From contig CM097886.1 of assembly GCA_044892525.1 (NCBI GenBank), forward strand, positions 131,502,001 through 131,566,000: 64,000 nucleotides of DNA, in the 5' to 3' direction. The notes below the pieces were generated by a model. It saw nothing but the letters and a program-made list of their open reading frames with translations. It had not been told where the DNA came from and searched no databases. Source of the DNA: Schmidtea polychroa. Taxonomy: Eukaryota. The position numbers were made by a program, and so were the translations under genes. This document shows, piece by piece, positions 2,661 through 39,676 of the stretch (position 1 is the first letter of the stretch; each line of letters begins with the position of its first letter).

Positions 2661-3401
2661 ACTTCCTCCTACTAATATAAATTAAAATGATATTTGAGAA
2701 AAAGGGAGAAATAAAAATCTTGAATCATTCTATAAGCAATAACACCAGCTTTCGAGAAAATTAATTACAGATCGGAAAATTTGTAGAATAATATCAGCAA
2801 TTAGAACAGCTTATGATGTCTAAAGACACCGAACGTGACGTTTGCCTGTTTATTGTTGATGATATTTTACAATCTTGCATTTTTATTATTGTTGGGCACC
2901 AGGGGTTCGCCAGTCCATAAGCGGTGTAACTAGGGGTAGTGCCATAATTAATTGGATTTTTCCCAGATACCCAAAATGATGATATTCCCTCCGATGTACC
3001 CATGACGTCGAGCCATGTTGGTGATGTACACCGAGGTCGGAATCTGTGGGCAAGTGAGGCCCTGCGTTAGAACTACTCCCTACAGCATTTGCGGTACGAG
3101 TTCCATACTGCCATAGAAGGGCTTACGTTTCACAACTAATTCCTCGAGTCCAAGTGAGGTTACTTTATTTTGGTTACTTATTCACCCCAAAGTCTTAGAG
3201 TAACAGTCAAATAAAATAAAAATAAGTAAAGATTAAATAAACCGAAAACATTTATTACGAAGATCACAATTTACAAGCACATCAAAGAAAGGTAAATCAG
3301 CTCCCCTGTACATTGTTTGATTTTTAAAATTTTTAAAGAATAGAAAATAATAATAATTTTTTAATAAAAAGGGTTTATTTGTCTATGTGCGTGGGTGTTA
3401 A

Positions 3402-4593
3402 TTGGATTTGCATGCATCGAAAATCTATTTATTGATTTGTATGTGCGCAAAATTCGTCTCTCCCTCTGACCACGAACCTACTGCATGGAGTGCCCTATCA
3501 AAATTTTCTGTACTAACACTGGGATTAAAAATCTTTTCCGTGAGCCAAGTATATCCGTCTACTCCGGTACTTGCAATTTACGAATTCGTCGGTAACGCAC
3601 TCGTTTCTGTGGGAGTTTTCGTCGTGCGAAATGATGTTTTGGTGAATAACCTGTGATGAGTATGTTTGTAATGCGATATCTATGTGTGTTCATATTGCGC
3701 TCCGTTATTATGTCATCAAAATTTCGACTGCCACTTTCCCTTTCCTCATTTTATTATCTCGCAGCTGTTAAAGTGTAGTAATCAACTTATTTTGTCACGT
3801 TTATCGCGAGGGAAATTTAATAGGGAAGAAAAATTGCTGGAGATAGACATTGCCATTCCTACCGATGATGGATGACCTCATAGTCGCCGTATGTTTACAT
3901 GATTTTGGTGAAGATTGTTCCCTGACATATGATTCCTGTCGTATCGCGTCAGATTACCTAAATATTTGCCGAAATCTGCAAATGCCTATTTACTCCAGAC
4001 CTCGCCTATCCCCAAGGTAGTCTATGGTCGCAATCAAGTAATGTTTATCTCATATTCATCAGAACTCGGTACCAACTTCAATTTCCCCGAATTCTTATCG
4101 GATATTTACTGCCTGAATTTTGCAATGATTCCTTATCAGTGAACGCGATCAGATTTTCCACGAGCTTGCACAAGCAGATGGATATGTCATTTTGCGACTA
4201 CTCGTATCTACCGGTTAGCGATCAAACCGTTAAAAGTGCAAATTTGTGAAGAAAATTGGATTTATCGATCTACTACTCGTCACGGAAGCTATCCCCTCAC
4301 AAGATGAACAATTCGAAAAGAAAGGAAGATTTGTGTCCTTCGTGATATCCATCTAAACTCCAATAAAAACACTCTCTACGCTCCTATGGGAGGTGTTGAG
4401 CCAGAGAAACGATCATTTCTCGTTTATTTCACATTCATTCCGAATTTCGCTCAATTCCTGTACCCAATCATCCAGCAAGGCGATCTGTGCCCTATCGATA
4501 CGGGTATCAACAGTTCCAGACGCCCTCCCGGCTAATCGGCTCACCTCTCATCATCAATATAATTTCAAAGTAATTAAAATGATAAAATTTTAA
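3402..4593 (+). pseudogene. Decayed antisense gene of E2
   Basis: Protein-like stretches across frames (KLLEIDIAIPTDDG; MDDLIVAVCLHDFGEDCSLTY; QIFHELAQADGYVILRLL). The DDG motif recurs antisense in E5 and E6 (TDG in E4). Confidence 0.45.
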
Positions 4594-4950
4594 ATTATGA
4601 CAAACAATACGTAGGTCATTCGGATGGCAATCCTTCGTTCATTCATATCCTCACAGTCCTATGCTACCGCTACCTTGTGACCAATATCCGGTTGATTCTA
4701 CCACAACTATTAATGCCACACCATAATTTCTACCATAAAGCTCCATTTTCATATCGACATCAAAATAAAAGTGAAATATTACTCTATATTATAATAAAAT
4801 AAACCTGTTCGTGCTTCCTTGTTGAGCTGAAACCGCTAATTCACAAATAGAATGGTAGGTAGTTAATTAATTTTGTCCTGTCGAATATAAGTTTAGATGT
4901 TCGTCGCACGGTAGTACCTTAAGTGAAATTTACCGCTCTATTTCCCCATA

Positions 4951-4980
4951 TACTGGATTCTGTCCAATCAGAATCCAGTA
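4951..4980 (-). promoter_or_regulatory. CCAAT box in the loop of a perfect 12-bp inverted repeat
   Basis: TACTGGATTCTG-TCCAAT-CAGAATCCAGTA, at the same relative position as CTGATTGG in E4, E5 and E6. Confidence 0.6.
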
Positions 4981-6099
4981 AGTTGTATTATTATATTTTT
5001 ATTCCTTTTTCTCCTTTTTTAATCTTTTATTATATTTTCTTTATTATTTTTGCAACTTTATTAATAAATAATATTTAATATTCTTATTTTCTTTTCTTGA
5101 GGTTTTTGGGGTATTTTCTCGTATTTTTTCTTATTCTATTTATTTTTTATTAACTATTATTTCTATTTCTAGATTTGTTATTATTATGTTAATTTTTCGG
5201 TTATTTTTTTTGTTATTTTCTTTTTTTTCCCTTCCTGGATGTAATTACTTAGGGTTTTTATTGTTATTTTATTTTGAAATATCTGTTTCCCATCTACCCT
5301 ATTTTACTCTTTTATTTGGTCATTTCCCCTTAACTTAATTCCTATGTTTGTCATTTTATATGGTGTTTGGGTCCCACCGGGTTATCAGCCCAACATTATC
5401 AATGAATTAATAGAAAATATTTTGAAAAAAATATGATATAAAACATCTTACGAAAATAGAACTAATATAGAACTAAATTAGAACTAATAATAATTTGGAT
5501 CTGCTAGAATTTGTCTCTTGTTTAGAATGTAGAGATACGTGTTTTGGATATAGAATATAACCAACCCATTCAACAAATATTAATTGAAAAAGCCTCAAAT
5601 ATTACAAAATTTGCAATATGTTCATGATGAAAATGATTCTTGGAATAATAATGGGAATGAAAAAATAGTATAAAAGTAAATTGAAAAAAAAATCAGTAAT
5701 TATTAATCGAACAAAGCTATACCATCTTAGAGGAAAAACTTATAGAATTTTAATCATAAGGTTATTTAATTCTAATTTGTTTGTAGATTTAAAAAAAAGT
5801 AATCGCACACCCAACCACGAGAAGCAGCATTTCAGTCTGTCTTGCTCGTTGGGATGAAACTTTTAGAGGGAAAATTATTAGAAACTTTAGATCATCCTTG
5901 ATCTAAGCGATCTCGCAAATTTCGAGAAACACCCTCCTTCTTGATCCATTTCTTTATACAGCACTGAGAGGTATTAGTTCCAGCGTTTGTTCTTATTCTG
6001 AGGACGGTTCGAATAACCGATTTCCTTACTTTAGTATTTAGCCTAGAATAAATATACGTTTTTGGACTTTTAGCAATATCACTCCATCTTATTCAAAAG

Positions 6100-6950: not shown

Positions 6951-7342
6951 AATCTCAAAATATTATATATTATATATCGCAAATTCTCATAGCATCGAAA
7001 CAAAAATGATATGGAACTCAAAAAAGAAAATTTCCTTTACTTTAGTTAGATTTTAGCTACTAAAATTTTTGTTGTAATCTAATACGGTGAATTTAATCAT
7101 ATTGGAAAATAACTTTGGTAGTCGAGGAATATTATAAATTAAAAAATTGAAGTAAATTAGAATTATGCAAAAAATCCGGTGGGATGATAGGTCGGTTTTA
7201 ACAACATGAATTTTTCTTATTTTTCTTTGAAGCATAGGGTCTAGCACTGGCAATAGAAATGGGTTGAAAATTGATCTTACGTATAGAATTTAAATTTTGC
7301 TTTTATATAACCGACAGAACTATATCAGAAATAATTATAGAA

Positions 7343-7691
7343 ATGTCCCAAAACCAGTAACTACGACGACGAAGAGGCAAACAGGCGGTTAATCACTCAA
7401 CTCCAGTCCAGATACATCTGGTACCGAATACATGATTGGAACCGGGGTCGAGACCTGGACAACTACGGCCCAGTCATTCGGAGTGGTCCCGAGCCCGATG
7501 CCCCAGCATGGGTTAAAACGGAATCCCATAACAATCGGTTGGTGAAGGCCCGCGACAGAGCGATGATGGAAGTGGAGGCCGCCCAAATCAGGCTGAGACG
7601 GGCAGAAGAAAAGGGGATCCTGCTGGATGAGAGCGAGAGTGAAGACGCACCCCCACGGAAGCGAGGGAGGCCTCGGAAGAATCTCCTATAG
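7343..7691 (+). pseudogene. AT-hook-family protein with a 1-nt frameshift near the start
   Basis: RYIWYRIHDWNRGRDLD...APAWV...EAAQIRLR...PRKRGRPRK; not listed in the ORF track; homologous to 41430-41828. Confidence 0.8.
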
Positions 7692-13338: not shown

Positions 13339-15394
13339 TGTTGGGCTGATTTCTAGACCCAAACTTCTAATTGTGACTGGAATGCGTAGGTACACAACAT
13401 GCAAAAAGCAAAAAGTATAGTTAAATATTAAAAAAATACACCAAATAAACAATAATAATTAAAAGAGAAACAACAAAAAAAAGGTAAACACAGAAATTAA
13501 ATAAAATTATACAAAAGCAAGAAGTTACGCAAAATCTAACTCAAAAATAACCAAATAAACATAGAGTTACAAAAAACAAACTCGAATAACTTAAAAGATG
13601 GTAAAAACAGCAAAAATTTCCAGAAAAACCCAGAACATTCCATAAAAATGGCGATGACCATCATAAAAGCTACCTTAAACAACAAAATTTAGAAAAATAA
13701 ATAAATTAGTAATAAAAATAAAAAATCTTAAAAAGAAATTCATAAAACATCAATTAAAATAAAAATTAAATTAAAAGTAATATAGAATGTTCTGGAACCG
13801 TTCCAAATCCATCATGGACGTAAAATTAACGAAAAATAATTAAAAAATAAAAACAAAAATTATGGCACAAAAATCGCCATTAAAAATATCAAAATTACAA
13901 AATAGAAAATTCTGGAATAAAAAGAATTCGATTTTGTTTTAATGCATCAATACATACACGTGTACAAAATAGGTATATATACCGACCCATTTTAGTCACA
14001 ATTTAATCTTTTTGTATGCCAAAAATTTTCGCAGCAAATTTAAACAACACCGAAAGTAAGGACTATTGTCTGTATATTTTATAATTGTTATCTTATTATT
14101 CTGTTTTATTATAGTGATTATTATAGTGATTATTATTGAATTATTCTTTTGCCTTTTTATTCTACTATTACGAAATCAGAGTGACCAGCATCGTCGTGGA
14201 CGGGTTATAGTCACGATGCTGATCAGCCTTGTTTCCAACTAATAGTCCACATGCACAAATTCGGGTCTACGACCCTACATGCACTAAAATTTCAATTTTT
14301 TTTTACCGGAGGTCGCCACGAACAAATGGTTTCTAACCAGGAGTAGGGCGGGTAAATCCATCCCGGTAGTTGGTATAGTCACAGGGACTATGCGGACGAA
14401 ATAAAATTTGGGAAAGTAATCGCGGGAAACATAATAAGGCCTATCGTACCGTATTCAGTTGAGTCGGAAAAGTAGGAAAATTTTAATTAATTCGACCTTT
14501 CGGTGAATGACATACCAAAAATAAACACTTAATTATTCTATAGGAAATATATCACTAGGAATATCTAAGCGGGAAATATCCCAGACTCAAATCATCACAA
14601 AGACTCTTGGTAGTCGGCTAATTGCACAAACTATTATTCAGTATGCCCAAAATTAACTACCCTTAATAGACTCTATTAATATTATTCACAATTTTATTCA
14701 ATCATAAATGTAATCTAGTTCACGTTCGATGGTATATTATTATAAACTAAAATCATTTCGTAAAATTTCCATACTTACCTTTATATGTATTGAAATTTAG
14801 CTTATATAAAATCTTTAAAGATTTTTTTTGTGTGTCCTAATAATACTATCATCTTTAGGATCATTATTATTACCATTATTACTTTTCTAAAAATTACATT
14901 AATAAAGTGTATATCATTACCATATCATATATAAGTTTCTTAATATATATTTAACTTACATTATGTTTAGAAAATGATAAATTATAAATTTTCTTAAATG
15001 ACCCGCCCCCGAAATATACATTCATTACCCATTGCACAAATATCCTAAATTAACTTATTTTAATATATATTTGGATTGTAGTGTTGGGCTGAATCGAAAA
15101 TTGGATTTTTTTGAAAAATCGTAAGGAAAGGAAGTAGAATATTAAGGAAAATAAAAATAAATAAACGAAACTAAGAATAAATTAGGATAAGACATAAGGA
15201 AAAAATAATAAGTAAGATATAGGAATAAAAATAACAATAAAAATAGGAAAAAGTAAATAAAACGATAAAATGACGATTAAATAATGCGGAATTTAATAAA
15301 TAATAAGGAAATTAAGGAAAAATAAAAAGAAAATATATTAAAAATAAGGAAAATAACCGAAAAAACAGAAAAAATATATTAAAATTTAAAAATA

Positions 15395-15445
15395 AGCGGT
15401 AATCAATTCTGATTGGTCCGCAGTTATAAGAAGTTACTATATAAG
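15395..15445 (+). promoter_or_regulatory. Putative Pol II promoter of E4 (inverted CCAAT plus TATA)
   Basis: AAGCGGTAATCAATTCTGATTGGTC then TATATAAG 22 nt later; same sequence and spacing at ~35982-36033 in E6. Confidence 0.6.
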
Positions 15446-15901
15446 CAGGCATCAAATTCAGAAAATTTAGTGTTAATCTAAAAACTATACAGGTAAATAA
15501 AACTGCAATATTACTGAGTGTTAATCTAAAAACTTTACAGGTACCCGACGATAGTGGACTAAAATTAACCCAAGCTTGACAGACGACTAACAGTGAGAAA
15601 ACTTAACTAAACAACGACCGAATTTCAGATCAGTGAGCCAATTCAAAACCGACGATTTCTATTTTTCGATTCAGTCTAATTAGATAACTCAACAGTAAGG
15701 AGATTCTATTTTGGTTTTAATTATATTACGAATAATGGTATTCATGAATATATAATTTAAATTTTAAAGTTAATCTCCTTCATTTGATCCGTAATTTTGG
15801 TTAAATGTTTATAGGTATTTTATTCATAATAAATGATTTACGATAGAGTTTTTATGATGCTATTTTATTATTATTATTTTTGCTTACATGATTGTAACAT
15901 C

Positions 15902-16050
15902 TATGAGTAACGTGGTGTTGAGACACTCCGTGTCATGATATGAGGTGCCTTCGGGAGCTTTGCCGGTGGACTTGGAGTGCTTCAATCACGCAGTTGGATT
16001 GGGCCAGAATTTGAAGGCTTCTTCACGGGTCCAATCGCTGAAGGACTTAA
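15902..16050 (+). pseudogene. RWTWS-exon family (copy at 36445-36600)
   Basis: NVVLRH..CHDMRCLRELCRWTWSASITQL vs NVALRYPCHGVRCPRELSRWTWSFSITQL; several differences are synonymous in this frame. Confidence 0.5.
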
Positions 16051-17329
16051 AATTAAATCGAGATAGTGGAAAGCAAGCAGGAGTTTCTAAATTCGAGAAA
16101 GAAGAAAGTATGCGCTTCACAATGTCTGAGCATGTCAAAGAAATCTTCGTTTCCATAATGACTTCATAACCTTCGTCTCCGAATGATATAATGACATCGT
16201 CCATCTGTATCTTATAAAGGCCACTATTAGAATCTTTCCTAGTTTCGTAATTCGTTTTTGAATTTAACAACAAATTCGGCTTTAAAATAATTGATTTTAA
16301 CGGTAGAACCATCACAATAAGAATTTAACCTCACCAAAAGTTTAACGGATAACAAACGATATATTTACAAATTTCATATACAGAAAATTAATTTCGAACC
16401 ATCTGCAGATGAACCGGCTTAAGGGTTTCTTCGGTTACCGTCCGAACTAAGCATCATCGGCCAGCCAAGAATGGTAGAGACATCTAACTGACTTTAATAA
16501 ATTCCAACTAGAGCGAGAGGTTGTTTTCAATTTTCCATGATTGGGTAGACATGTGCAGAAATCCAGTTTAAAATTCCAAATCAAAATTTTCTACGAGACA
16601 AATACACGCACGATGTACAACGAACTAGATAACAATTCTAGTGAAAAATTCCATATGGGGATGAGCAACAATGATAACGCTGATTAGAGAAGCGTAGTCC
16701 GGTGAGAGATTTTCAGATGTCACCCTCGTTTAATCAATTTACTGCAACACCGAGGGGTATCAGTTGAGTCAGCTATGTCCGATCTCGACTACAGTTTTCG
16801 TCCAGTAGATAATGAGTAGTTACCAGCAGGTAGATAACAATCATCAAACTAATATTAATCATAGATAATCTCTGGTGGGTAATTACACATGTAGATGTAG
16901 AGATAATTACGAACCTACCGAAGTTATATTTGGGATCAAAAATTAAATATACTGAATAAGTTTTGTTGTAAAATCAAATAATTCGTTTTCCATATAATGA
17001 TTATGAGAATAGTAACTGCGTTTTGTCAAGGGTAGCCTAACTTTAGTTTTAGAGAATGAAAATTTATAAATAATTATATATAAACATTTAATTTGGTTGT
17101 TTTCAACACTACGGCATTGTTTTGGCAGATAAAGATTTATTTTACCAATTTGATTTTCTTGTAAATGATCCAGTCAGCTAGGGTGAATACTGATTCATCT
17201 TGTCATTCAATTCGGTTGATTTTCTTTTGTTGTAATGAAATCTGGTACTACCAATAATCGGGGTAGTGAAATAATGATTTAACGAATTTAGTTCATCTCT
17301 CTTATGCCGTTTTCTTTTTCTTTTATAGA

Positions 17330-17484
17330 TATCCGAGGTGATTCCAAATACAAGATCCATACCTAAACCTTGCTTGTCCTGCTCCGATAAGAACGTAGTG
17401 ATCAAGGATCTTCAAGCGCAGATAGGGCGCTATAAGAAAAGGATAGATGAGCTGGAGGGTACCTGGTTTACCCCACTCAAATGA
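17330..17484 (+). pseudogene. EGTWF-family N-terminal fragment
   Basis: PKPCLSCSDKNVVIKDLQAQIGRYKKRIDELEGTWFTP. Confidence 0.8.
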
Positions 17485-18798
17485 CCCTACCCTCCAATAA
17501 AATTTCAGGAAACTACTGAAATCTATTTTTAGTAACAACCCCCCGGAAAACGACGTTATGATCAATAATTTAAATTTAAGTTATGTATTTATATTTGGAC
17601 ATGCGTATATGTCCGTGTGTGCACATGTGTCTGCCCATGTTAATAACAGCCTCATTGAGACATAGTTGTCTCCCAGATCATCGGAGGATGAAACACTCTA
17701 GTTCATTTATCTACCCAAGAAAAATAAAATTATGCCGAAGTTACCTTAGAAAACTGAATTATTTGCTTAGGATTATTTAAAAATTAAAAACTCAAAAGTT
17801 GAGCTGAATTTATTAACCAAAATAACAAAGTGAAATGGAAAACGACATAGATAAATAGAAATACAAATTTGAATCACATCGGAGGCTCGCTTCGTGAGAA
17901 TTATCTGACCAATTACTCCCATCACTGTAAGTTCACGAGAACAACTGAAAAATCTCTGAATATCCTCGAGTGTAAATAGTGAACTTAAAATTCCAGGGTG
18001 TAGACCCGAAATCTGAAATAATTATCAATTCCCAGCTAAACACCTCACGAATTGAGTGTGTCGGCATATTTTGGCAGTAGTATCTCGAATCCAGTATTTA
18101 CGATGTCATGTTTAAAGTGAAGCATTGGGAGACCCGTCCCTGAAACCAGACGAATTAAAAATCAAAATTTAACTTACCCGTCAAGCATCAGTTGAAGAGA
18201 GAGCCACTTACAACCACTATGGTCAGGGACTCGCAAAGAGCTGAATATAAATTCAGACAATTTACAATACCCGCTTCCCATAGTGGATCCTAGTAGCACG
18301 ATTTTTGTCGAAATTATCGACAGAGAATTTTTGAAAAGTTAATTTATGAAAACGAATATTTAAATTAATATAAATGGAAACTAATATTTAAATTAATATA
18401 ACTTAGTATAAACTAATAAAATAAATCTTTAAACGATTTAAACAATCGGTATTGGAAGTTTAATTTATAAAAGTTAAATCACCCATTCTTACTGTACCAA
18501 CTATTCATTCATCTGACTTAAAGTTATTGATTCCCAGGTTAAACCTACGAACTGCAATTTCGTAACTGGTACGTAAAACCTTGGATTTCGTAATTCTCAA
18601 GCCAACTTAAATTAAATTGAAAAAGAAATCGAAAGGGGAGATTAATTAGCACTTTAGGTCCATTTTCTCTACCTAAAATATCGTTGAAATGCGGATCGCG
18701 TTGATCTTAAAGGTAACGTTATATTAAACGTCTTGGAGTAACCGAACGTAAATGGAAGAACAAGGATTCGTTTTAATATCTCTTTTATCATTGCAGCC

Positions 18799-19287
18799 AT
18801 GCCCAACACTGAGCCAAGGAAAGTACAAGAAGGTCACTCGTCAACCGATTGGAGCCTCGGAAGTATCGACGAGGAGGCAGACGAAGCCGTCCGATTGAGG
18901 GAGGAAGCAGAAATCGCCCGGCTAAGGTCTAGATGGATCTGGTATAAGATTCATGATTGGACCTACCAGAATGTGGTCCCGGTGTAGCCGTATATCAACT
19001 ATACTTCATTGGCTTTGAGCGACGCATTCGACGATGTGAAGGAGGCGGTGGACCGGTTGCATCGGCTCGAAATATCAGTCCTGGCCGGCGAGCTGGAAGA
19101 CGTCGACGCCTACGCCCGAGCCCAATGCCATCCAAAGCGGACCGCAGCTCTTCGCAGTGGGCTGAAATACCCAAGAAGTCCTCGACGGAGACAGGAACAG
19201 CTGAGAAAACGCGGACGGCCACGAAAAACCGCCAGCTCAGCCAAGGAGATTACCGAACTGAAAACTAGCGCTGCACGACACACCTAA
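18799..19287 (+). pseudogene. AT-hook-family protein with one in-frame stop
   Basis: ORFs 18799-18987 and 19009-19287 share a frame; RSRWIWYKIHDW...LRKRGRPRK. Confidence 0.75.
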
Positions 19288-19712
19288 CATCTGTATTGTG
19301 ACTAAAGTCTTGTGATAAAAATAATTATCATGTAATGACTCGGTTATTAATGTACCTTGCGATATTGTGTACTGGGTTAGATAACTTTGACCCAGAGTTA
19401 AAATAATATTCGTTATGTCTTAGTAGTTTGTATTAATTTAAATGCTTGGTTGAGTTTTGGTTGTCGATATTAATTTAATTGTGTGTATTGCTTGATTCTT
19501 GGTAATGTTCTTAGCATTGACTATTACTATTATCGACTACAATTTTCCGTAACATTGACAGCCCGATAGGGTTTGGTAATATTCATAGAACTCGGTTTGG
19601 GTGCGCGTAGAGGAGGGCTGCGACGAGGAGATTACATTCATTTAGTATTGATGGTCATAATAACGCTCGACACTCGATGCTGATGTGAAACTCACTAATG
19701 TTATCTTGTTTT

Positions 19713-23042: not shown

Positions 23043-24069
23043 ATGACTCAAGATCAAACGGAAGCCCCAAATAACGAAATAAACATCAGTAGAATACATA
23101 GAGAAAGATGGGCCAAAGTGATGACACAATTATCAAATCAAACACGAAATTACCTCGAAGAAGCGAGAGAATGGGAAAACCACCAGTTCCAGTGGTTAGT
23201 ACAGAATTTACGGGCGGAGGCGGAGGCCGAGGCCTGCAAAAGAGCCGCCAAATGGTCGGCATTAGAAAGTACCAGGCAAGAGGCACACGGGCATTACCTG
23301 AAGCAGCTGGTACAGGAGTCAAGAAAAAGACTAACGGATGAGAATAAGAAGCGGGAAATAGAAAAACAAAAGGAGGAAAGAAAGACCCGCCAACTATTAG
23401 CAGAAGCCAGAAAGTGGAAAAAACAACATCGACAAATCCAAAAAGAGATGAGAGAATTGCCGCAGAGATTGGAACACGAGAGTGATCAAGGGAAATGGGA
23501 AGAAAACCTGGATCAGAAAGAAGAGCTAAGAAGGCTCCGGAAAGTAGCAGCTAGAAGTCAAACCTGGCAGACCAAGGCCATGGAATTTGAAAGGCATCTG
23601 GCCATGAAACTGTCTATAAAGGAACAGGAGAATGATCCTGCAACAGTCAGGTAGAATCGTCGAACTCGTAAATAAGGTGGCAGACCTTGAAAGAGACAAT
23701 AACGGCTATAAGGGGGCACTAGAACAGAGGAATATAGTGCTAGCCGGTAAGAACAAGAAGTTGGAGAACGAGAGAAAGATGTATGACGAAAATATCAAGA
23801 ACCTCGAAAAGGAGATCAAAAAATGGGAAAACGGCGAAAAAGCGGAAGAGTTAGAAAAACAGATCGAGGTAAGGGACGACGAAACCAGGTATCTAACATA
23901 CCTGTTGGACGAGGAACTCAATGTGTCAAGAGCGCTAAGAGACGAAGTTCAGGAGCTCAGAGCGCAGATTCCCCGCTACTACATCCCATTCGATCCCATC
24001 GCAATCCAACTACAAACGTCAATAGAAAGCGATGAAGGGTATGTAGGTCAGGAAGAGACCTTTGTATAA
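23043..24069 (+). CDS. Uncharacterised coiled-coil protein, probably one gene split by a frameshift (23043-23654 and 23632-24069)
   Basis: E/K/R/Q-rich helical sequence with spaced Trp; the two ORFs overlap by 23 nt. Confidence 0.6.
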
Positions 24070-24243
24070 AGATAAATAGAAAAGATAAAAAATATAAAAA
24101 TCGGGACCTGTATCCCAACAAAAAAATTAATAGTACGATAAAAATATTTACGGGACTGTAACCCCAATTATATAATTACATATAGATGTATACGTATAAG
24201 CCGCACTATAGCGCAATTATTAATTATGTATATATTATAGAAA

Positions 24244-24963
24244 ATGAACACTGAAAACGGACGACCTATCATAACATCTATAATCGAGCTAGAAGAGGGA
24301 GAAATTGAAGTAGAAGTGGAGAGGAAGAAAACTATCAAGGAAGAATTACAAGAGGAGAGACAAGAAAACGAAAGATTAGTGGAAAGATGGAGAGATAATC
24401 GAAAAATGATTAAAGTATTGAAAAAAGAATATACCTTGTTAGAAGAAGTAAAGAAAGAGGTAGAGGAGGAAAATGAATGGCTTCACGATCAAAGAAAACG
24501 AGGGAGAAATTGGGAGAAGATCGCGGAAGAATTATGGCAGGAAAGAGCCAGTCTCAAGGCAAACGAAGTGATCGAAGATTACTGGAAGATGGAAGCGAGG
24601 AAACGACAGGAAACTATCAGGGAACTAGAACACCAACTGGAAGTAAAAGTACAGGAAAACGCAGAAATGGAAAAATGGAACAATAAATATCGAGAAATAG
24701 AAACAAAACGGCAGAAACAAAACTCAAAGACAAACGACCCAGAGGAAAATGATTTCCTACAATTGGAACTGGAACGGAACCTGAAAGAAAAGAAGAAGGA
24801 GATAAAAGCCTTGAAAAGAGAGATAAGACACTTGACAGACAAGGTCCAGGAGAAAGAGAGACAACTAGAAATGTTGCCGGAACCCCGACATAGAGTCATT
24901 AAAGCGGAGTCTAAATTAATGCGAATCCGAGAGAAAAACCCAAAAAAGAAACGACAAAATTAA
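24244..24963 (+). CDS. Uncharacterised coiled-coil protein, 239 aa, intact
   Basis: ATG start, heptad-rich, basic C-terminus, TATA-like intergenic region upstream. Confidence 0.7.
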   Translation: MNTENGRPIITSIIELEEGEIEVEVERKKTIKEELQEERQENERLVERWRDNRKMIKVLKKEYTLLEEVKKEVEEENEWLHDQRKRGRNWEKIAEELWQERASLKANEVIEDYWKMEARKRQETIRELEHQLEVKVQENAEMEKWNNKYREIETKRQKQNSKTNDPEENDFLQLELERNLKEKKKEIKALKREIRHLTDKVQEKERQLEMLPEPRHRVIKAESKLMRIREKNPKKKRQN

Positions 24964-25007
24964 AACCGACAAAAAGCGATGTATATAAATGTGTATAAAA
25001 TTACTAA

Positions 25008-25682
25008 ATGTATATCAGTAGTATGAGAAACAAACCGATCATAATAATCCTGATGATGACGATAGTCCTTGATCTGACAAGGCGACAACCCGTAAAGCCC
25101 GAAATTGAACATATTCGAGACAGCAGAAAATCCCACCAAAAGACCGAACCAACAGCCAAATCATGCATCTATCCAAGTATCATAAAAACCCGTCTTACCG
25201 ACAATATTCGAGCTACCCGAACGTACGTCAACAATATCAGATTAATGTGTAATAACCACCCCATGTGCAAAATTATTGATAAAAGAATCCTGGACCAAAT
25301 TCACCAACTCGATCAGCTAGAACAACAGGTCCAACATCAAGAAATATAAAACCCAGTCGAACCAGTAGAAATCGCCAAAGAAATAAATGACCACCATGAA
25401 CTCCTCTACGTGGTAATCGTCGAAACCACCGTAATCATGGTAATCATCCTCCTAAAAATCCATAATATCTACCAAGTTTGGAAGAAAAGTCACCCCGTAA
25501 CGGAAAGATCGTCTCGAAGATCCCAAGAAGCTAATATGGCTGACGTAATCCAAGAAAATCTCCGACAACGAACCTCCATCGCAGAAACAGTCAGACCGTC
25601 CACAAGTCGCCGAATATACTACAACATCGAAACCCAACAACCAAATCACCCATCATCAACGGCAACTGATCAACAAACATAA
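25008..25682 (+). pseudogene. Small type I membrane protein in env position, one in-frame TAA at 25347-25349
   Basis: ORFs 25008-25349 and 25410-25682 share a frame with no other stop; hydrophobic N-terminus IIIILMMTIVL, heptads, TM-like LLYVVIVETTVIMVIILL, cytoplasmic tail. Confidence 0.6.
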
Positions 25683-25907
25683 CATTTCGAACTGTAACTA
25701 TTGACAAAATTTTTGCTGTTTTATTATCTTCTGATGAAACCGGTCACCTTAAGTGGCCACTGCTTGCTTATATTTGTCATTTTCTCTGTTTAATTAAAGT
25801 ATTTTTTTTGTTTAATTTGATTTTCTGTTTGGGTGGATTTTGATTGAGATTATGGGTTATACCGAAAGAAGGTATGATCCAAATGTATGATATTATGTGA
25901 ATTGAGG

Positions 25908-25937
25908 GACGCAATTTTAACGGGCCCCGGAGTGATT
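25908..25937 (+). promoter_or_regulatory. Possible non-canonical polypurine-tract region
   Basis: TGAGGGACGCAATTTTAACGGGCCCCGGAGTGATT directly before TGTTGGG; resembles Ty3/gypsy pre-3'-LTR motifs but is not purely purine. Confidence 0.35.
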
Positions 25938-28834
25938 TGTTGGGCTAAACTTCGAGTGTCGAAAAATCGGGCTAAGAACGAATAAATAGGATAAAACAAA
26001 TTTTCAATAAAATCGCGAGAAATATAAGAATAACTAAATCAGATAACAATAAAAGAAATAAGAATATAAAATAAGAATATAAAAGAAATAAAAATAACTA
26101 ATAAAACAATAGAATGCATAAGGCGAAATAAGGGGAAATTACCCAACACACATGGTAGGAAAAGGAAAAAACATAAAATAACCAAAACGTAAGAAATAAA
26201 CGAGAAATTTAAGAAAATAAAATAGAAATCCTCAAATAAATGTATAGGCGAATTAAAACAAAAATTATATTATGATAAAATGACAATAAACGCGCAGGAA
26301 AAACGGGAGGAAAATAATAAAAAAAATACTAAAATAAATAAAATATTAATACAAATAGGAAAAGTTATTAAAACCCAACACATTACAATAAAAACACCTA
26401 AATAATAATAAATAAAAAATATCACAAACAAGGCGCGTCCTGATTGGACGAAGAATAATATATAACTAAAGAGAAAAATCTGTGGAGTACCACTTTTAAT
26501 CGCTACTCTACAGGTAAAAAATTTTTTTATGTTGACCACTTTTAATCGCTACTCTACAGCATCTTGAACACCATTTTGACTACGATTCAACGAAAACAAA
26601 ATCGACTACCAGTATCTAGCGGAACCAAAAGGAAAACGATTTAGTAGAATCCTGAACATTTACCATTTTTTGACACTCTCGAAGGATATTATTTGGTAAG
26701 TATGGTAATTGATTTAAATACTTTTTATGATGATGATATTAAATACTTCTATGAGTTTGATATTGAATAAATTCTTTTAGTATAATAAATGTTTAATTTT
26801 CGAAAGATGTTCCTCTCTCTATATGGTGCTGGCGACGATGTCGTCTGGGAATCCAATATGATGCGGGAAAATCAAATAAATCCGTAGAAGAAGCCACGAG
26901 GATGGCGACTAGAAGTGACATTGAAAATCGGGATGAAGCTAGATTTATAGCAATAGAGATGATTGAACGATTGTGATTACTGTGGGACGGCATCATATTC
27001 GAGACTCAGACGGCGTGGTCGCCAGACAAGTAAATTTTATTATAACGATTAATTTTCATAAAACCATGCCATTTATTTAATCATATTTATTATAAAAAAT
27101 CTTCTGAAAGTGACGAATCGAGGAGATCGAATCGTCCTTCCTGGCGGTCTAAGGACGGTGGCAGCGATGATTGCCGTCCTTAGGTGGGTCAGGAGGGGTG
27201 AGGACATCAGGCGGACGATATTAATACTGCACGGGGGATTCTTCCACCGAGAGACGTCTGTGTTCGGCATAGAAAATACTGTTTTTGGAGAAGATGAGGC
27301 AAATAAAAAATCCACAGAGATTCGCCGGAGAAATTCGAAATACAATTCTTTAAAATTAGGTATAATCCTAGTTTAATAAGTCCAGGTTCGACATCGTTAC
27401 GTCTTAAGTCCCCGAGTTACAGTGGGCTGAACACGAAGGGATCATAGTCTTCGGTTGCAAACAGAAAATTCCAACGTGATTAGTGTAAACTGTCACCAAG
27501 CTTTTCGGTAGGGATTTGGATCGCTAAGGAGTTAACGACAAAATCCATCATCGGTGCACTTTTAAGTTGAATTGTTGATTCTTAGGCTATAGATAAGGAT
27601 TGTTTTTCTGAAAATAGAGTAAATAAATCCTGAGAAATTATCAGAACACTTACGATAGATGCGAGGGAAGCCGTTGTCGAAGTTATCAGATAACTGCCAA
27701 ATGAATTTCAGTCTGATTATACCCAACCGAATTAGATGACTAAAGGGAATCTGAACAGTGAGAGAGAGCGATAACCGTCATCACCATAGATACAGTGAGA
27801 GCGTTGACAGACGGATATCTTAAGTCGACCACGATAGTAGATAAATTATCAGCTCCAATTCTCCAGTGATTTGTCGCGTAATGGGTAAGGCTGACACGCA
27901 TAACGAATCAGGTAGAGATTTCTAAGAGTCCGGATCTTGATAATACATGCCTACCAGCACGTCATATGGAATTCCCTCTCAGTATGCCGCCAACCAATCC
28001 ACATAAAAAGAAAATTTGTTCGGTGACCTAATCATTACATAATAATGACGAAGTTAAACGAGATAGTAGCATTGCGTGTAGGGACGACAAGGGAGATCGT
28101 ATCCCCGTAAATAATTTTGCTAGGAGTATCAGACAGCCACTCTCGAAACATAATCCGAACCAGACACACCAAGACATAGTGGTCAACAGAATAGTAGAAA
28201 TTGACAATACACAAGCATGCATTGCAACACATCATATTCAGCACTCAAGTAAATGACAGTATTTAGTCACAACCACATCCTGTGTTAGAGTCGTCATGAC
28301 AACCTCACGGCAAAAATTTGAACTAAATAAAATTTTCAATTCACGTTCAAAGTTCAAATAAATATATATATTATGATTCCCTTTTCAATTTCGATCAATA
28401 TTAAAATAATGCAAAGAAGCAGGGCCGAAATTTTTGTTATTTACACAAACTTAACTTCATAGAACTTAGTAATGAGGAGTAGACTTATCAATATTGGACA
28501 ATAAGAAATATATTAATGGTGTTAAAGGTTATAGTACTCGAACGATGGAACATATGAAGGGGGGGTCAAGCCCGTAAAATTATACCGAGTGATGAAACTA
28601 TAATAAATGAATTCTGTCTAAAATTCCCGTTTTCCTCTCATAAAATTGTAAGGAACGAGTGAGTTAACTTGAATGTTTGAGTTTGAATGAATGCGAGTAT
28701 CGATCAACGACACGGGTGTGTAGATCACTATTGAATAGTTTGATTTGGAAACTTGTAAACCTCATATGCGAAATGCAAATAACGTTCCAGAGAAACTTTT
28801 ACGATAGACAATAAATTTTTCTTTTAATCTTTAG

Positions 28835-29593
28835 ATGAATACCTCGACCAGCTCTGGAAAAATTCCTCGTCCTTGTTTCTCCTGCGCCGATAAAAATGCA
28901 GATATCGCGCAGCTCCATCTATACATCGGGGCTCTAAAGAAGAGAATTGACCTCTATGAGGGTACGTGGTTCTCCCCGCCACAAATGAAGGAGGAGCGAA
29001 AGAAGATACTCCGGTTGGAACATTGCAGGGATAGCCTGCTGGAGGAGAGCCATTGTCAACGGCTAACCATTAAAGCGCAATCCGAAGCCCTCCACAAGGT
29101 CTATACGGAGGCAGAATTGGCCAAAAGGGTTCGAGAATTTCCCGTCTCAGACAGTACTAATGTGTTTCCCCCGCACCACCAGTCGTCGCAAGCATCTACA
29201 TCAAATTGCCAAGGGCACGGCTCGTATCTGCCGCCAATTCCAGCTCCAGTATTATCCGGTTATCGGCCCTTAGCAGGTGGTTCTTCCGACCCGATCTTAG
29301 CTCCAGTGTTGGTGGCGCCCTCCGCCGCATCCGATGCGAATCATCCGGCGCCTTCTCGTAAAAGGAAACGGCCAACTAGGGCTGCCAAGAATTAAAAACG
29401 CAGAGACGCGATAGCCGCATTGGAAGCTTCATTATCAGTGGCCCAGTCCACCCTTAAAGAGATTTCAAGTTCCCACGTGATTCCGGCCAAAGAAATATTT
29501 CGAATCGTGCCGGCCGATGGCATCAAATATCTCGCAGACCGTCGCTTGCCGGTGGATATCGACGAAGTATTCGCCGACGGAGAGGTTTTTTAA
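28835..29593 (+). pseudogene. EGTWF-family protein, ~252 codons, one in-frame TAA at 29393-29395
   Basis: RPCFSCADKN...YEGTWFSPPQMKE...RKRKRPTRAAKN*KRR...DIDEVFADGEVF. Confidence 0.8.
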
Positions 29594-29888
29594 CAACTAG
29601 AGGTGACTACGGTGTTGGTCTACCGGGAAGAATGTTTTCGCGACCTCCTCTCTAGTGTATGACAAATTCTCATTTTCCTTAGTGATCGTGTATTTGATTC
29701 TTGTGCAACCTTTGTTATTATATAAATTAATGTATGTCGTATGATTAATATAAGTTTTTTGATAATTAATGAGTTATTTTACGAGAACGATGAGCGGAAT
29801 ACCCGATTCGATTGGTGAACTGAATGTATGACATTTGCGTGAAGGTCGTCCTTTTGGACCAGGGTCGACCCGAGAATGAATGAGTATG

Positions 29889-29990
29889 GGTAAGTCCTTC
29901 TAAGGCACCTTAGAACCTGTACCGCGAGTGGGTTAAGAGTAGTCCTAAGGCAGGGGCTCACCTGTTAAACTACTCCAACCCGTGTGAGCA
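29889..29990 (+). other. Conserved structured segment near the right end of the elements
   Basis: TTCTAAG-GCAC-CTTAGAA hairpin; GAGTAGT/ACTACTC stem enclosing GCAGG-GGCTCA-CCTGT; homologues at 39361-39450, 3050-3127 (-), 20283, 33040 and 1898. Confidence 0.55.
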
Positions 29991-30216
29991 GCACCAACGT
30001 GGGAACACCGCCACGGGCTCACATGAGGGAATATTAATAAGGTCATGTGATGTATGTTGGGTAAATCTGAGACCGATGTATGGGATTGCATGTCCGACTA
30101 CGAAAATATTTCTTCTCCCCTTCATACACCAACAATATATAAATACAATTCTATGATTTTTACGTTTTTATTTCTGATTGTTTCTCTGACACAATTATTA
30201 AATTTATTATAATTAT

Positions 30217-32999: not shown

Positions 33000-33251
33000 A
33001 TTATAACATAGCATAAAAGGACCTAACTGAAGTCAGGAACAGTCCTTCTATCCGCAACCCGTGAACCCATTGGAATGCCAAACTATTATAGTGTACAGAG
33101 GTACGCTCACATCTCGCGAGTATTCACCCATACAACATACTGCCAACGTTGATTACTCAATGGGTGTCGAATGGTCAAACAAATAATTGTATCTTGGATG
33201 GCATCGGAAACGACATGAAAGGGTAAAATGTAGAATACCTGCGACCCACCA
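33000..33251 (+). mobile_element. Isolated right end of an E3-type element
   Basis: Colinear with 20240-20489 (TTCTATC.GCA..CCGTGAACCC; CAACGTTGATT.CTCAA; ...ACCCACCA). Confidence 0.75.
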
Positions 33252-34139: not shown

Positions 34140-35600
34140 AATTAATAAGACACAGCTGAAAAAATTAATATAGTTTATTCGCAATAATTAAAAAGAAAAA
34201 AAACAGTCATTCGTGGAGTGGTTTCGCTTGAGACAACAATGTCAATAGCAAATCTTAAAATGTCAATTGCAAATAGATATAATAATACAACAACAAAAAT
34301 AATATTAAAACAACAAAAAATGAATTTGAATAAAGCCGCTTTGCAAAAATAAGAAAGAAAATTCATAAAAATCAGAAACAAATAAAAATTTTATCAAAAT
34401 TTCGAATAAAAATCCAGAACAATCCATAAAAATGCCGAAATCCATCATGGCCGCCAAATAACCTAATAAAAGTTTAAAAAAAAAATATTTTAGTTAAAAT
34501 ATAAAAATATTTTAAAAAAATTGCAGAAAACAATTTAAAAATTAAGAATTAGATAAAATTTAACATGGAATGCTGTGGAAATTCCCAAATCCATCATGAA
34601 GGTGCTTGTTTTGCTTGTCGCAAATTTGCCTGGCAGATTTTCTTGGGCTGCGCTGGTGTCTCGGAGATGCGGGTGCGCTTATGATTTCCGCCATTGGTCG
34701 TATCTGGGCGATTACGTCTTGATCCGCCGCTTGATGATGCACCTGAGTCTCTAGATTCAAATTTTCAGACGAAGAGCCCGTATCTCGGTTTAATCTTTGG
34801 AACTCTGAAGCTGTAGCTGCTGTATCAGCTGCAGGCGCTTTTGTATTTCTGCGGGACAAAACCACGTCCTTTGAACTTGGTGAGTTTCGTTCGAAGCTCT
34901 TCTACTTGTTGTTGCGTCTGCTCCCGATCCTGGTGTAGATTTTCCATCAGTTTGAACACTGAATGGGAAAATTGAATAACAGTGGCATTTATAAAATTGT
35001 CAATCAATTTAGTTTATCAATCATAATAGGGAAAATAAAAGGTAACAATCCCGGATATTCCGCGCTCTAATCTGTAGTCACCGTTATCTAGGTCAAACCT
35101 CCACAGTACCCTTGTCCTGGCGTCTCCATGTGGCGGTCTATCACCTTCTTAACTAAAACACTAAAATAAGGCTATATTATATTCCATATTGTTATAAAAA
35201 TATAAATAAACATAATAGTTCTGAGACATGCATAAATAAAACAAAAAAATCAACGCTAAACTAAAGTTAAAACAAGGATTTCAGTTTCAATAGAGTCACC
35301 AAGATTCGAGTCTTCGACACTCCGTGATAATAGTACTTGAGGTGTATCATAATTCACGGTGTACCTTTCGAGTGCGTCACAGCTTCCTGAGCCCTGTTGT
35401 AGTAGGCCTTTGGGATTCGTTCCATGGGTGTTCTGGACCGCGTTAGATGGCGGCCAGCTTGTCCGCATTGCACAACAGCCGGGCGGTTCCGTTACACGAC
35501 AAATTCGTATTAATTACTTAGAATAACTTTACGTATGAGTTTCAATTAGAGTTTAAAATGTGTGTATTTAATGACAAAATTTAAATATTAAAAGAAGAAT
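34140..35600. mobile_element. Rearranged E3-type fragments in mixed orientation
   Basis: A-rich head (+) homologous to 13400-13830; EGTWF exon on (-) at 34600-34975; weak RWTWS-exon similarity (+) at 35310-35450. Confidence 0.55.
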
Positions 35601-37039
35601 TCCCATTTTTTGTATTTTTATAAAAGTACATACATAGTATACATTTTTTAAGTAATAATAATGTTGGGCTGAGTCGGAAAATTAATTTTGGAAATTAGGA
35701 AAGTAAAATAAGCAGGGTGCGAAGAAAATAAAAATAAAATAAACAAATTTACGAATAAAATAGAATAAGATATAAGAAAAACAATAATTAGAAAATAAGA
35801 ATTAAAACAAAAAATATAAAAATAAGAAAAATTAAAATAGGACAATAGAATGACGGAAAATAACGTAAAATGCAGTAAATAATAAGGAAATTAAAGAAAA
35901 TAAATAGAAAATATAATAAAAATAAAGAAAATAGGAAGAAATAACTAAAAAACAAGAAAAATAAATTAAAGCAACAAAATTAAGCGGTACTCAATTCTGA
36001 TTGGTCTTCACACATAAAAAATTATTATATAAGCAAACACAAAAATTATTAACTTACAGTTAATCCAAAAACTTTACAGGCATTACTAGCGACTTATAGA
36101 TCACTCAAGAAAATTAGTAGCAGCAGAATTTCCAGGATTCGAAATCGAAAACAAATTAGCCTTCAGAAAACGACCGACCGAATTTTTGACTCAGCCTCAA
36201 CATCGATATTAGTGGTAAGGATAACTTTTATGTGGAATTTGTCTTTTAAGTTAATGATAATCATGAAGTTAATTTATAATTAAAATTTTGTTCTGTAACA
36301 CATGGCTTTTCATTTGATCCCATAATTTTAATGTTTGTATATTTAGATGTTTATTTGGTTGAATATCGTTAACATTAATAAATAATTTCATTCAGAGTTT
36401 TATACTTTATTCAGTAACTACCATTTTATGAAATTTTATTTGTTGAGAAACGTGGCGTTGAGATACCCCATGTCATGGTGTGAGGTGCCCTCGGGAGCTC
36501 AGCAGGTGGACATGGAGTTTTTCAATCACGCAGCTGATTCGGGCCGAAGTGTGGGGGCTTCCTCACGGGTCCGTCGCTGAAGATGCGACTAAAATATATG
36601 AATAATACTCTAGAAAGATAGCAGCTATAAAGTGATTGAAGGAGTAGTCGTATGGGTCCAGTGAAATGCAGAAAATTTTGTTGGAGAGTTCGCACAGTGA
36701 TTGAGGGTGTCACGCTACCGAATCATAGGATCATCTTTACCAAACTTAGATTGTCTCCATCATCTGAAAGATCTATGCAAGAGTTTCTGAAATTCGTCTG
36801 AACATTATTATTGTCATATGGGGCGTATCATCTGTGTTCATAATTACACTCAAAATTGTTCCTGAAATTTTCTGTCTCCAGACCTTCGTAACTGCTATTT
36901 TCATCGTCTATATCCCTCGCGTACACTCAACTTTGATACGTTTTCATAAAGAAAAATAAATAGTTTTAAAAATAAAAACACGAAATACTATCGAATCTAA
37001 TCTAGAAAAATTTATTTCCAAAACAATCCAGCATGATGT

Positions 37040-37483
37040 TCAGTTAGCACATCGAATACAAAATGCCTGCAGTAAATGGTGCAAGATGAGATGTAGCTGA
37101 TACGATAGACCATCCAAAGGAGAAAAATCCAAATCTTGAGTGTGGCATAAAGAGTGGTAGAATATCCGCATTTTGTCGAGTTGTCTTCCAGCGATAGTTG
37201 AGATATTTAATAAATTTCCAAGCCGATGTTGATGGTTTGCGCCCGTTGACGATGATAGAAATCCACGATGAGAGTTTACATCAGCCGAGATTGTAGTTTC
37301 CGTAAATAGGCATACAGTGAGAATCGTGCGACATGTGGAATATTTGTGAAACTGGCATATACCAAACTCATTAGATAATGTAGCGACATTCAAGTCTGAG
37401 AGTAGAGCAAACACACGAGAGTTCGCATGACAAATACACACAGCACACGGATGTGCATGCATTGTAGCTACGATCGGTAACAT
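37040..37483 (-). pseudogene. 5' part of the antisense gene of E6
   Basis: 147-aa ORF starting with Cys/His-rich HPCAVCICH; SDDG motif downstream at 36756-36767. Confidence 0.4.
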
Positions 37484-38331
37484 TCATATGAGAGAGATAA
37501 GGTAATTCTCACGTAAATATCCATAGTAGTGAACTTTACCATATGCTATGCCGATGGAGATTTTCATCTCTGTGAGACAATAACGGATAAGTGTGTTAGG
37601 ATAGCAGCTGACCTGAGGCCACTACACTCAAGTGGTCATTTCTCCTATATCACTGTGATAAAAATTTGTTTATGTTATTATAGAAATAAACTGTATAATC
37701 AGTAACCGATGATCTGAGGTACGAAAACTCTCAAAGTTCACTTATTGGAAAATCGCCAATTAAATATTTGAATAATTAGAATAATTTGAAATTGGGCTTT
37801 ATAGATAACACTGACAATCTTGTTCAATGGGCGTTATAGATAATCATATAAATTTTAGATTAATTGTGATAATTAATCTATCGAAATTTTTATTAAATAT
37901 TATTATATGATTATTATTATAGTATTATTAAATATTACCGACCCTCAGACCGTCAAGTATAGGAATTGTCGAGTGGGGAAAAGGGGAAAGAGTTTTTGGG
38001 GAGGTAACTAGCGCCGATATCGTGCAATTGTTGATCTAAAATGAAATCCGGTATTCGTAGAAAATTCTTGGAGTTAGTAAATGTGCCCCATCGAAAAATC
38101 TTCCGGTTAATTCATTTTGCATTCGACAAGTCAATGGGATTTATCAATAACTAAATTTTGTAAATAATGTACGGGGTAGAAACGAGTTGTCGTCTGGGGG
38201 GAAAAATTCCCTTACCCACGTAATCTGCTCTTCTTTTTCTGTTGAACATCTAAGCTAGTAACTGAGTAGTTGTACCAAATGTATGACATTTCGAACATCA
38301 TATCTTAATCTCATCTTTATAGCTATCCAAC

Positions 38332-39081
38332 ATGATGCCAAATGCCAAGCCCGTTTTACGTCCTTGCTTCTCTTGTTCAGACAAGAATGCAATAATCAAG
38401 GACCTACAGACCCAGATTGGACGGTATAAAAAGAAAATAGACGAGTTGGAGGGGACATGGTTTAGTCCCGCCCAGATGAAAGAGACCCAGAAAAAGTTAT
38501 ATCGAAGCGAACATTGTCGTGACGCTCTGATCTCCGAGAGTCGTGCACAAAGGAGTTTAATAAAGGAGCAATCCGAGGCCCTTCATAAACTATATCTCCA
38601 AGCAGCAACCACCCGGAAAATCGCAAAAATCCCTATCAACGAAGCCGATAATCTTTTTCCAGTGCACCACGATACCTCTGCCAGGTCTTCATCTCCGTTC
38701 AAGAAGTCTTGCCGTGAGTGCGTGGAGACCGAGCTCTCTCCTCGATGTCCAGATCTTATCTTCCCCGGGACTAGTAAAGCACAGCCAAACACCGCGTCTT
38801 CATCTGCCGTATCACGAATTACTTCAGTAGTTTCAAAACCTAAACGTCGACAGCTGTCGCGTACCGAACGCAAACGGAAACAATGAGAGCGGGCATCCAT
38901 CAAAAAAAGCACACCCTCGACCGTCACCCCTGTCAACAGCAACAGCAATCCCACCGTGGTCGATCTGACGACCGGGATCCCAGGGCGAGTCATCTCCGCC
39001 ACCGGGGTAACATGGGAGGAAAATGCCTCCGAATTCTTTGATTTAGACGAATTATTCGCTGACACTGAGTGGGAAAAATGA
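38332..39081 (+). pseudogene. EGTWF-family protein, ~249 codons, one in-frame TGA at 38884-38886
   Basis: RPCFSCSDKN...LEGTWFSPAQMKE...KRRQLSRTERKRKQ*...WEENASEFFDLDELFAD. Confidence 0.8.
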
Positions 39082-39676
39082 GACCTCCCCGGAAGAGCAT
39101 TCCTGGCGATTTGAAAATGGGGAGTCATATCATCACTGTTCTTATATTTTTCTTTACTCTATCGCAGTATATTTATGTGTACAAAGTTTCTGTGTTCAGT
39201 GTCATAATATTACAATAAATGTTTTGTGGTTCTTATACGTTTTCTCTAAATAAGGAGGTTGGTATAGCATAGTAGATACACCTGCAAGTTTCCCGATTCG
39301 ACAAACATCACTCGGTTTGCATTCAAGGAAACTCCAGTGGGAGGTTCGATCGTGTGATTAGACGTAAGTCCTTCTATCGGCAGTCGTGAGAGGAAAGTCG
39401 AGGCTTCAGTAAGGAGTAGTCCTAAGGCAGGGGCTCACCTGCTTACTGGTGTCTCGCCGACATAGTGCAGTTCCAAAGTGAAGAAATTCACGGGTGCTAT
39501 GTTGGAGGGCAGGTTGTGCGGGGTTCTGCTCATGGTTGACAAGGAAGTAGTCATTATACGCGAATGAGCAATCATCCCTTAGAGAAGGAGCTAAGTCCAT
39601 AAGAGCCAACCAGGTAGTACCCCAGCATAATTTTTGGGGGCGCAGCGGGATATTATTGAAATTTCTGTTTATCGAT

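Follow-up and report, generated by a model that had tools for sequence, protein, structure and literature searches.

The window analysed here is a stretch of 64,000 nt of the forward strand of Schmidtea polychroa (GCA_044892525.1, CM097886.1, positions 131,502,001–131,566,000). It holds six named elements, E1 to E6 (table 1), which we interpret as long terminal repeats (LTRs) of giant Ty3/Gypsy elements with the layout of Burro/GYPSM1, a family already known from planarians. Most of the LTR types carry an open reading frame (ORF), called here the LTR ORF, and all end in a sequence predicted to fold as RNA, called here the RNA module.

Elements E1 to E6

Left ends with the motif TGTTGGG occur at 2890, 13339, 22700 and 35662; the matching right ends are CCCAACA (5395), CCCACCA (20489), ACCAACA (30134) and CCCAGCA (39627). 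Exact 4-bp target-site duplications (TSDs) flank E2 (TTAT), E3 (CTTG) and E5 (ATAT, enclosing the whole element), and E6 has none. An earlier analysis of the letters alone (the sequence-only reading) had described the same ends and duplications. It had also seen no motif of reverse transcriptase (RT), integrase (IN), tyrosine recombinase (YR) or DDE transposase in the elements. The window does lack pol sequence: tblastn with the protease (PR)–RT–RNase H (RH)–IN frame of a full-length element gave no match in the window.

Other placements had to be revised. The left end of E1, placed outside the window by that reading, is not just outside it: TGTTGGG is absent from the 10 kb upstream, and the alignment of E1 to an intact relative begins at about LTR position 75. 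E2 lies on the minus strand: its A-rich head starts at 5395, the polypurine-tract (PPT)-like sequence of its relatives adjoins that end, and the RNA module has the same minus orientation. E2 is an internal deletion derivative that has lost the LTR gene. A segmental duplication (1945–6314 = 44189–48581, 98.4%) contains it, and the second copy is not an independent insertion since its flanks are identical to those of E2.

E3 is interrupted by E4, and about 650 bp of E3 are gone at the junction between them; intact relatives of E3 measure 5.4–6.0 kb. The uninterrupted paralogous flank that had been taken to confirm the E3 site (12627–12763) is indeed uninterrupted, but it lacks some 13–15 bp including the target site itself. 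E5, whose internal region is 91.6% identical to a full-length copy described below (L001–L004), is an internally deleted element and not a solo LTR. A copy of E6 type at C1:266.79 Mb (L092/L044) has the same make-up, namely a 5′ LTR stub, the last internal ORFs, a PPT and a 3′ LTR, so this style of deletion recurs. E6 is a 5′ LTR because a degenerate primer-binding site (PBS) follows it, which explains the missing TSD. The proposal that the elements are solo LTRs thus holds for E2 and E3, the only solo LTRs among the named elements, but not for E5 and E6. At least four further LTR remnants lie in the window.

Table 1. Positions of the LTR elements, their genes and their signals in the window.
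Feature	Position	Strand	Remarks
E1, CxxC-type Burro LTR remnant	106..2111	+	left terminus gone; two internal deletions
E1 LTR ORF	1004 to ~1630	+	broken
E1 RNA module (predicted)	1902–2014	+	partial
E2, solo LTR	2890..5395	−	internally deleted; LTR gene lost
E2 RNA module (predicted)	2960–3128	−	
E2 CCAAT/TATA promoter (putative)	near 4970–4945	−	
E2, second copy	45143..47666	−	within 4.4-kb segmental duplication
E3, solo LTR, two-gene type	13339..20489 (13339–15081 + 17480–20489)	+	
E3 gene 1, AT-hook-motif ORF	18799..19287	+	166 aa in intact copies; broken here
E3 gene 2, coiled-coil ORF, homolog of E5/E6 LTR ORF	19720..20175	+	broken here
E3 RNA module (predicted), conserved	20277..20439	+	
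E4, 5′ part of E6-like LTR nested in E3	15082–17479	+	no TSD; ends inside its own LTR ORF
E5 5′ LTR stub, ~180 bp	22700..22886	+	97% identical to head of 3′ LTR
E5 internal region, last 3 kb of Burro internal	22883..25937	+	coiled-coil accessory ORFs; ends in PPT-like tract
E5 3′ LTR, 4197 bp	25938..30134	+	
E5 3′ LTR signals (putative)	CCAAT box 26442; TATA ~26459; GT donors ~26514 and ~26696	+	
E5 LTR ORF	28835..29593	+	252–254 aa where intact; here ended early by a stop after codon 186
E5 RNA module (predicted), conserved	29888..30053	+	
E6, 5′ LTR, 3966 bp	35662..39627	+	internal region lost
E6 LTR ORF	38332..39081	+	247–249 aa where intact; here ended early by a stop after codon 184
E6 RNA module (predicted), conserved	39362..39532	+	
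E6 tRNA-Pro PBS, degenerate	39635..39651	+	7 nt behind CA end
Remnant, AT-hook ORF of E3-type LTR	7341..7691	+	
Remnant, 3′ end of E3-type LTR	33036..33251	+	with RNA module
Remnants, E3-type head beside inverted E3-type gene 2 piece	34306..34980	+ (head), − (gene 2 piece)	
Remnant, E3-type LTR	41430..44171	−	open AT-hook ORF 41433–41828

Full-length elements in the genome

The genome of the window itself, 781 Mb with four large contigs and about 30% GC, was searched with a protein motif common to E1, E4, E5 and E6. This gave 5553 first-look candidates, and the best 150 LTR ORF matches were scored. Among these 150 places, 82 have a partner on the same strand 25–27.6 kb away and 96 have one at 20–46 kb; a partner on the opposite strand was found for two.

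Two copies are full-length elements. The first (L001–L004) is 30.6 kb long, with LTRs of 4.2 kb that are 99.76% alike and the TSD TATC; the second (L031–L035) is 36.3 kb long, with LTRs of 5571 bp that are 99.84% alike and the TSD CCTG. The sequence-only reading had advised looking for two copies around gag-pol with a PBS behind the CA end, and this is the arrangement of both. The Pfam domains of L001–L004 are gag, CCHC, a viral fusion glycoprotein, PR, RT, RNase H, IN, ankyrin, RING and TRAF/MATH. PR, RT, RNase H and IN follow in this order in both copies, whose RT–RNase H is about 88% alike. The fusion domain (Monjiviricetes_fusion, E 4.5e-71 and 2.7e-69) lies between gag and PR and in frame with PR; ORF1 is broken in both copies. 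Ankyrin and MATH/TRAF domains are common to the two; in L031–L035 MATH lies within ORF1, and a BIR-RING gene is added, BIR being present in that copy only. Both types also have a small RING-finger ORF between the PBS and ORF1 (L001, 6446–6940; L031, 7378–7857).

Over 18 nt, the PBS is exactly complementary to a tRNA-Pro(TGG) of this genome with CCA added. It begins 7–8 nt behind the CA end in L001–L004, in L031–L035 and in the window (spacer 39628–39634), instead of 0–3 nt, and this spacing may imply an unusual processing of ends by the integrase. In the E5 and E6 types, the spacer TGATT is also found before the 3′ LTR. The end of E3 joined to TGGGGG has 71 matches in the genome, of which L031–L035 is one; a reversed control has none. 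Genes for tRNA-Pro(TGG), the tRNA that fits the Burro PBS, form a tandem array with 475-bp spacing at C1:130.90–130.95 Mb, and the pattern has 1625 matches genome-wide.

The 3′ LTR is preceded by a conserved PPT-like tract that is weakly purine-rich. LTRs of the E2 and E6 types stand behind the same tract and homologous Burro 3′ internal ORFs; no complete element of either type was recovered, L093–L095 and L036–L038 holding the 3′ internal region only. Intact LTRs are 3.6–6.0 kb long. The TSD survey covered 46 loci, 28 with both LTR ends found and the remaining 18 left unscored. Six of the 28 adjoin a PBS or PPT, and an exact 4-bp TSD is present in 18 of the other 22. Three candidate full elements were rejected: the LTR pairs at C1:190.8 Mb and C336 are segmental duplications, and the locus at C1:224.5 Mb is a rearranged duplication.

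The layout corresponds to that of Burro/GYPSM1 as given in the available text of a review (PMC6431247): giant Ty3/Gypsy elements of more than 30 kb, with an ORF1 in which gag, CCHC and an env-like fusion protein precede PR-RT-RH-IN. The elements found here share with it the size, the very long ORF1 with these components, ankyrin repeats, the MATH/TRAF, BIR and coiled-coil cargo and a very high copy number. The same text reports BCL2-like, SUMO-like and dUTPase-like motifs in Burro from HHpred; none has a Pfam match at E 0.01 in either full-length copy, HHpred being a profile–profile search. It also describes the Ogre elements of plants as giant Gypsy elements with LTRs of 1.9–6.5 kb. Ogre thus resembles the present family in its multi-kb LTRs, but its extra ORFs lie in the internal region as described there, whereas in the present family the LTR itself contains a gene under selection.

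Genes carried by the LTRs

LTRs of the E1, E4, E5 and E6 types encode one protein of about 250 aa. The fetched loci and the window yielded 61 motif matches, including 37 distinct full-length frames of at least 240 aa. The median ratio of non-synonymous to synonymous substitution rates (dN/dS) is 0.044 for residues 1–105 (188 pairs) and 0.25 for the rest (238 pairs), as computed from pairs with dS 0.1–2 that are not independent of one another. In E5- and E6-type LTRs the synonymous excess is confined to the LTR ORF, and no codon signal points to further sense or antisense genes in these LTRs. Judged by these substitution patterns, purifying selection acts on the LTR ORF across lineages, strongly so at its N-terminus. 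The LTR ORF is the only LTR gene kept in every lineage seen.

E3-type LTRs have two ORFs, one for an AT-hook protein and one for a homolog of the LTR ORF product (hhalign E 7e-6, L018). The proportion of non-synonymous differences (pN) is below that of synonymous ones (pS) in all 21 and 6 pairs for the two genes. The Pfam AT_hook match to gene 1 is below the cut-off; ORFs of this kind also occur in same-strand pairs about 30.8 kb apart. The start of gene 2 appears to follow a splice acceptor.

From sequence and model, the LTR protein consists of a CxxC motif, a long helix pair or coiled coil, a disordered linker, a Lys/Arg-rich helix and an acidic-hydrophobic tail. Neither the LTR ORF nor the AT-hook alignment had a match in a search for homologous proteins; a profile search of a protein library returned 16 remote homologs (P0001–P0016), several with an Arg-rich motif. 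The one homolog tested is no more than 42% alike to any of the 150 places scored in this genome and therefore probably comes from another species. Most of the 16 are gene models that join a homolog of the LTR ORF to host domains with which it has no relation (transporter, phosphatase, actin, peptidase). These fusions are probably prediction artefacts from intronic LTRs; exonisation of the LTR ORF into host genes is a weaker explanation.

The RNA module

Every LTR type has, within its final 250 nt, about 165 nt with invariant islands. RNAalifold predicts 22 pairs, with two-sided changes in 16 of them, and 94% of the cells at paired positions can pair, against 71.5% in shuffled alignments (none of 500 shuffles reaches the observed value) and 31–50% in slid controls; the structure was predicted from the same alignment on which it was scored. 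G-U cells (48) exceed A-C cells (4), favouring RNA of the plus strand. The outer stem, which lay outside model building, pairs with its own partner at a median of −17.2 kcal/mol, compared with −7.3 kcal/mol for partners from other types, and 30 of 36 values lie beyond the 95th percentile. Single copies fold with z-scores of −3.4 (E6), −2.6 (E3) and −1.2 (E5).

A model of the module has eight matches in the window and 67 across 70 loci; the module stands 70–100 nt ahead of the LTR end, close to the PBS. Rfam 15, searched with window positions 1–41000 at E up to 5, gave no match to the module and one unrelated weak match outside it. Likenesses to hairpin, twister, hepatitis delta virus (HDV) and group I motifs, judged by eye, were dropped. 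All LTR types are thus predicted to end in a covarying two-hairpin RNA that has no Rfam match.

Promoter and transcript signals

Near the start of E1-, E2-, E4-, E5- and E6-type LTRs, at LTR +330 to +630, there is a conserved CCAAT-TATA module with GT donors behind it; E3-type LTRs have a TATA box only. In nearly all LTR ORF copies listed, a pyrimidine-rich AG stands 0–10 nt before the ATG, and in E5 the ATG is directly behind the conserved AG acceptor. Contigs from three presumed-RNA runs and one unlabelled run were compared with one locus (L066); of their 40 joints, the 15 listed include no GT-AG joint. Run X1 has low depth over the presumed intron (4677–5678) and run X6 a single loose end resembling poly(A) at 7414, both signals being too weak for use.

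Neighbouring sequence

Besides the LTR elements, the window contains remnants of other kinds. Broken ORFs at 8335–9327, which we take to be Polinton-like, have similarity to endonuclease VII and type-B DNA polymerase (Pfam, below cut-off), with a related piece at 10196–11043. A piggyBac-like transposase remnant (DDE_Tnp_1_7, 20560–22440) begins about 70 bp behind E3, and a hAT remnant (Dimer_Tnp_hAT, 39677–40893) about 25 nt behind the PBS of E6. Pieces of a FLYWCH-domain ORF at 49102–50369 presumably derive from a Mutator-like transposase, and a tandem array with units of about 380–510 bp, 84–96% alike, extends from 51923 to 55604.

Nature of the elements

We put at about 0.85 the probability that the window elements are LTRs of giant Ty3/Gypsy elements with the Burro/GYPSM1 layout, whose selected gene and predicted RNA fold likely form a regulatory module. 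Several observations weigh against it. The assignment to Burro follows the architecture, not a comparison with the named Burro-1 to -4 or the GYPSM1 consensus. Among the 22 loci of the TSD survey discussed above, three lack an exact TSD and one is ambiguous. All LTR ORFs within the named elements of the window are broken, truncated or deleted, and many E5-type copies have no canonical poly(A) signal behind the ORF. Gene 2 of E3b alone does not match the LTR ORF profile (probability 2%), and the module of E5 folds no better than its shuffles (z −1.16). The reading of protein function is drawn from sequence features, because the LTR protein has no Pfam family, no Protein Data Bank (PDB) relative and no Atlas match at 0.9 (there are leads below 0.9 only), and because its AlphaFold model shows low-confidence helices (predicted local distance difference test 63, predicted template modelling score 0.26). 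The REV match of one remote homolog in Pfam is below threshold (19.1 bits, cut-off 22).

The sequence-only reading had taken the elements for an unrecognised family of enzyme-less, multi-gene TG…CA units. A new family of this kind would accommodate the lack of pol in the window, the alignment of the DNA of different types only in short pieces and the two genes of the E3 type, but it is very improbable now that autonomous elements with the same LTRs have been found in the genome: they carry gag-pol and match a described family, Burro/GYPSM1, in architecture as far as the text of PMC6431247 sets it out, an outcome which that reading had itself named as speaking against it. What survives of that reading is the insertion by integrase of multi-kb LTRs coding for protein, which the paired-LTR elements support. 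The lengths of 2.5–4.7 kb that it gave are not those of intact LTRs, and several genes per LTR are present in the E3 type (two) but not in the E5 and E6 types (one coding region each). The TGT ends and 4-bp TSDs would also suit non-autonomous DNA transposons of the Ginger type, Ginger having TGT…ACA ends and a 4-bp TSD. We regard this as scarcely credible, since gag-pol, PBS and PPT are enclosed by two units in direct orientation and the terminal inverted repeats of the units measure only 6–8 bp; an integrase-like transposase lacking RT and bounded by long terminal inverted repeats, which the sequence-only reading had linked to such transposons, does not occur in the full-length elements.

As Burro-like LTRs, the window elements would have been inserted by integrase, with RT and integrase supplied by autonomous elements; no enzyme is needed in the LTR because full-length elements carry their own. 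Solo copies would arise by LTR–LTR recombination, as is standard for LTR elements, and E1, E2, E4, E5 and E6 would be decay products. The LTR ORF would be transcribed from the CCAAT/TATA promoter and its transcript spliced to the conserved AG before the ATG. It is then slightly favoured that the gene lies in a repeat (R) region of about 3 kb; we know of no R region nearly as long. The competing arrangement, somewhat short of even odds, is a very long U3 region with its own internal promoter for the gene, in the manner of U3 ORFs of retroviruses such as nef or sag, genomic RNA starting near the 3′ end of the LTR. A structured RNA near the LTR end would in that case sit at the 5′ end of genomic RNA, and no intron-less LTR is found among the E5-type copies with both ends, all of which are 4.1–4.3 kb long; however, the sole conserved CCAAT/TATA promoter is at +330 to +630, and no TATA is conserved before the RNA module.

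Function of the LTR protein

The features of the LTR protein suggest an oligomeric nuclear regulator acting in trans. A transcriptional activator is our tentative preference; an RNA-binding factor of Rev/Tat kind for the module seems less likely, and some other role a little less likely still. Retroviral counterparts that overlap the LTR or have regulatory functions include sag of mouse mammary tumour virus (MMTV), nef of human immunodeficiency virus (HIV), foamy virus Tas, and Rev/Rex/Rec with their RNA response elements. By analogy, these systems may be compared with the present one in having a small ORF tied to the LTR, a basic Arg/Lys-rich helix, an acidic tail and a structured RNA in the LTR. 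They differ in that no homology is shown, that the ORF here lies wholly in both LTRs and survives in solo LTRs, and that the host is an invertebrate. A speculative and rather unlikely extension is that the Burro LTR houses a circuit like that of complex retroviruses, in which the basic coiled-coil protein acts on the promoter or on the two-hairpin RNA, R is about 3 kb long and intact solo LTRs are self-contained spliced genes.

LTR proteins may instead resemble the rest of the Burro cargo in having the host as their target, in chromatin, apoptosis or immunity. The RNA module would then be unrelated to them and serve as a signal for packaging, dimerisation or primer placement, or as a ribozyme. 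Burro carries host-directed cargo (BIR, TRAF and BCL2 in the text of PMC6431247 available to us), the function of B-IAP being cited second-hand in PMC13465017; the place of the module near the PBS, shortly before the LTR end, also agrees with such a role. We consider host action doubtful, because the LTR ORF is the only gene kept within the LTR in every lineage and the remote homologs keep an Arg-rich motif, and because no ribozyme of Rfam matches the module.

Significance

The LTR gene and the RNA structure are, provisionally, new for Burro. The text of PMC6431247 available to us gives neither and calls terminal repeats generally noncoding, and neither appears in the available parts of PMC8532177, PMC13238120, PMC11410931 and PMC13465017; the primary Burro papers and Repbase reports may already describe LTR ORFs. 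For annotation, most of the remote homologs carry a warning that gene predictors splice the LTR ORF into genes of the host. For the family, which is already known and, as cited in PMC13465017, under study for a part in the survival of planarian stem cells, it may be new that LTRs are not passive but carry a gene selected across deeply split lineages together with a predicted RNA fold outside the known families. A solo LTR usually passes for a non-coding scar; here it could be a gene, and if the proposed circuit is true, very many solo LTRs could supply a regulator in trans in planarian cells.

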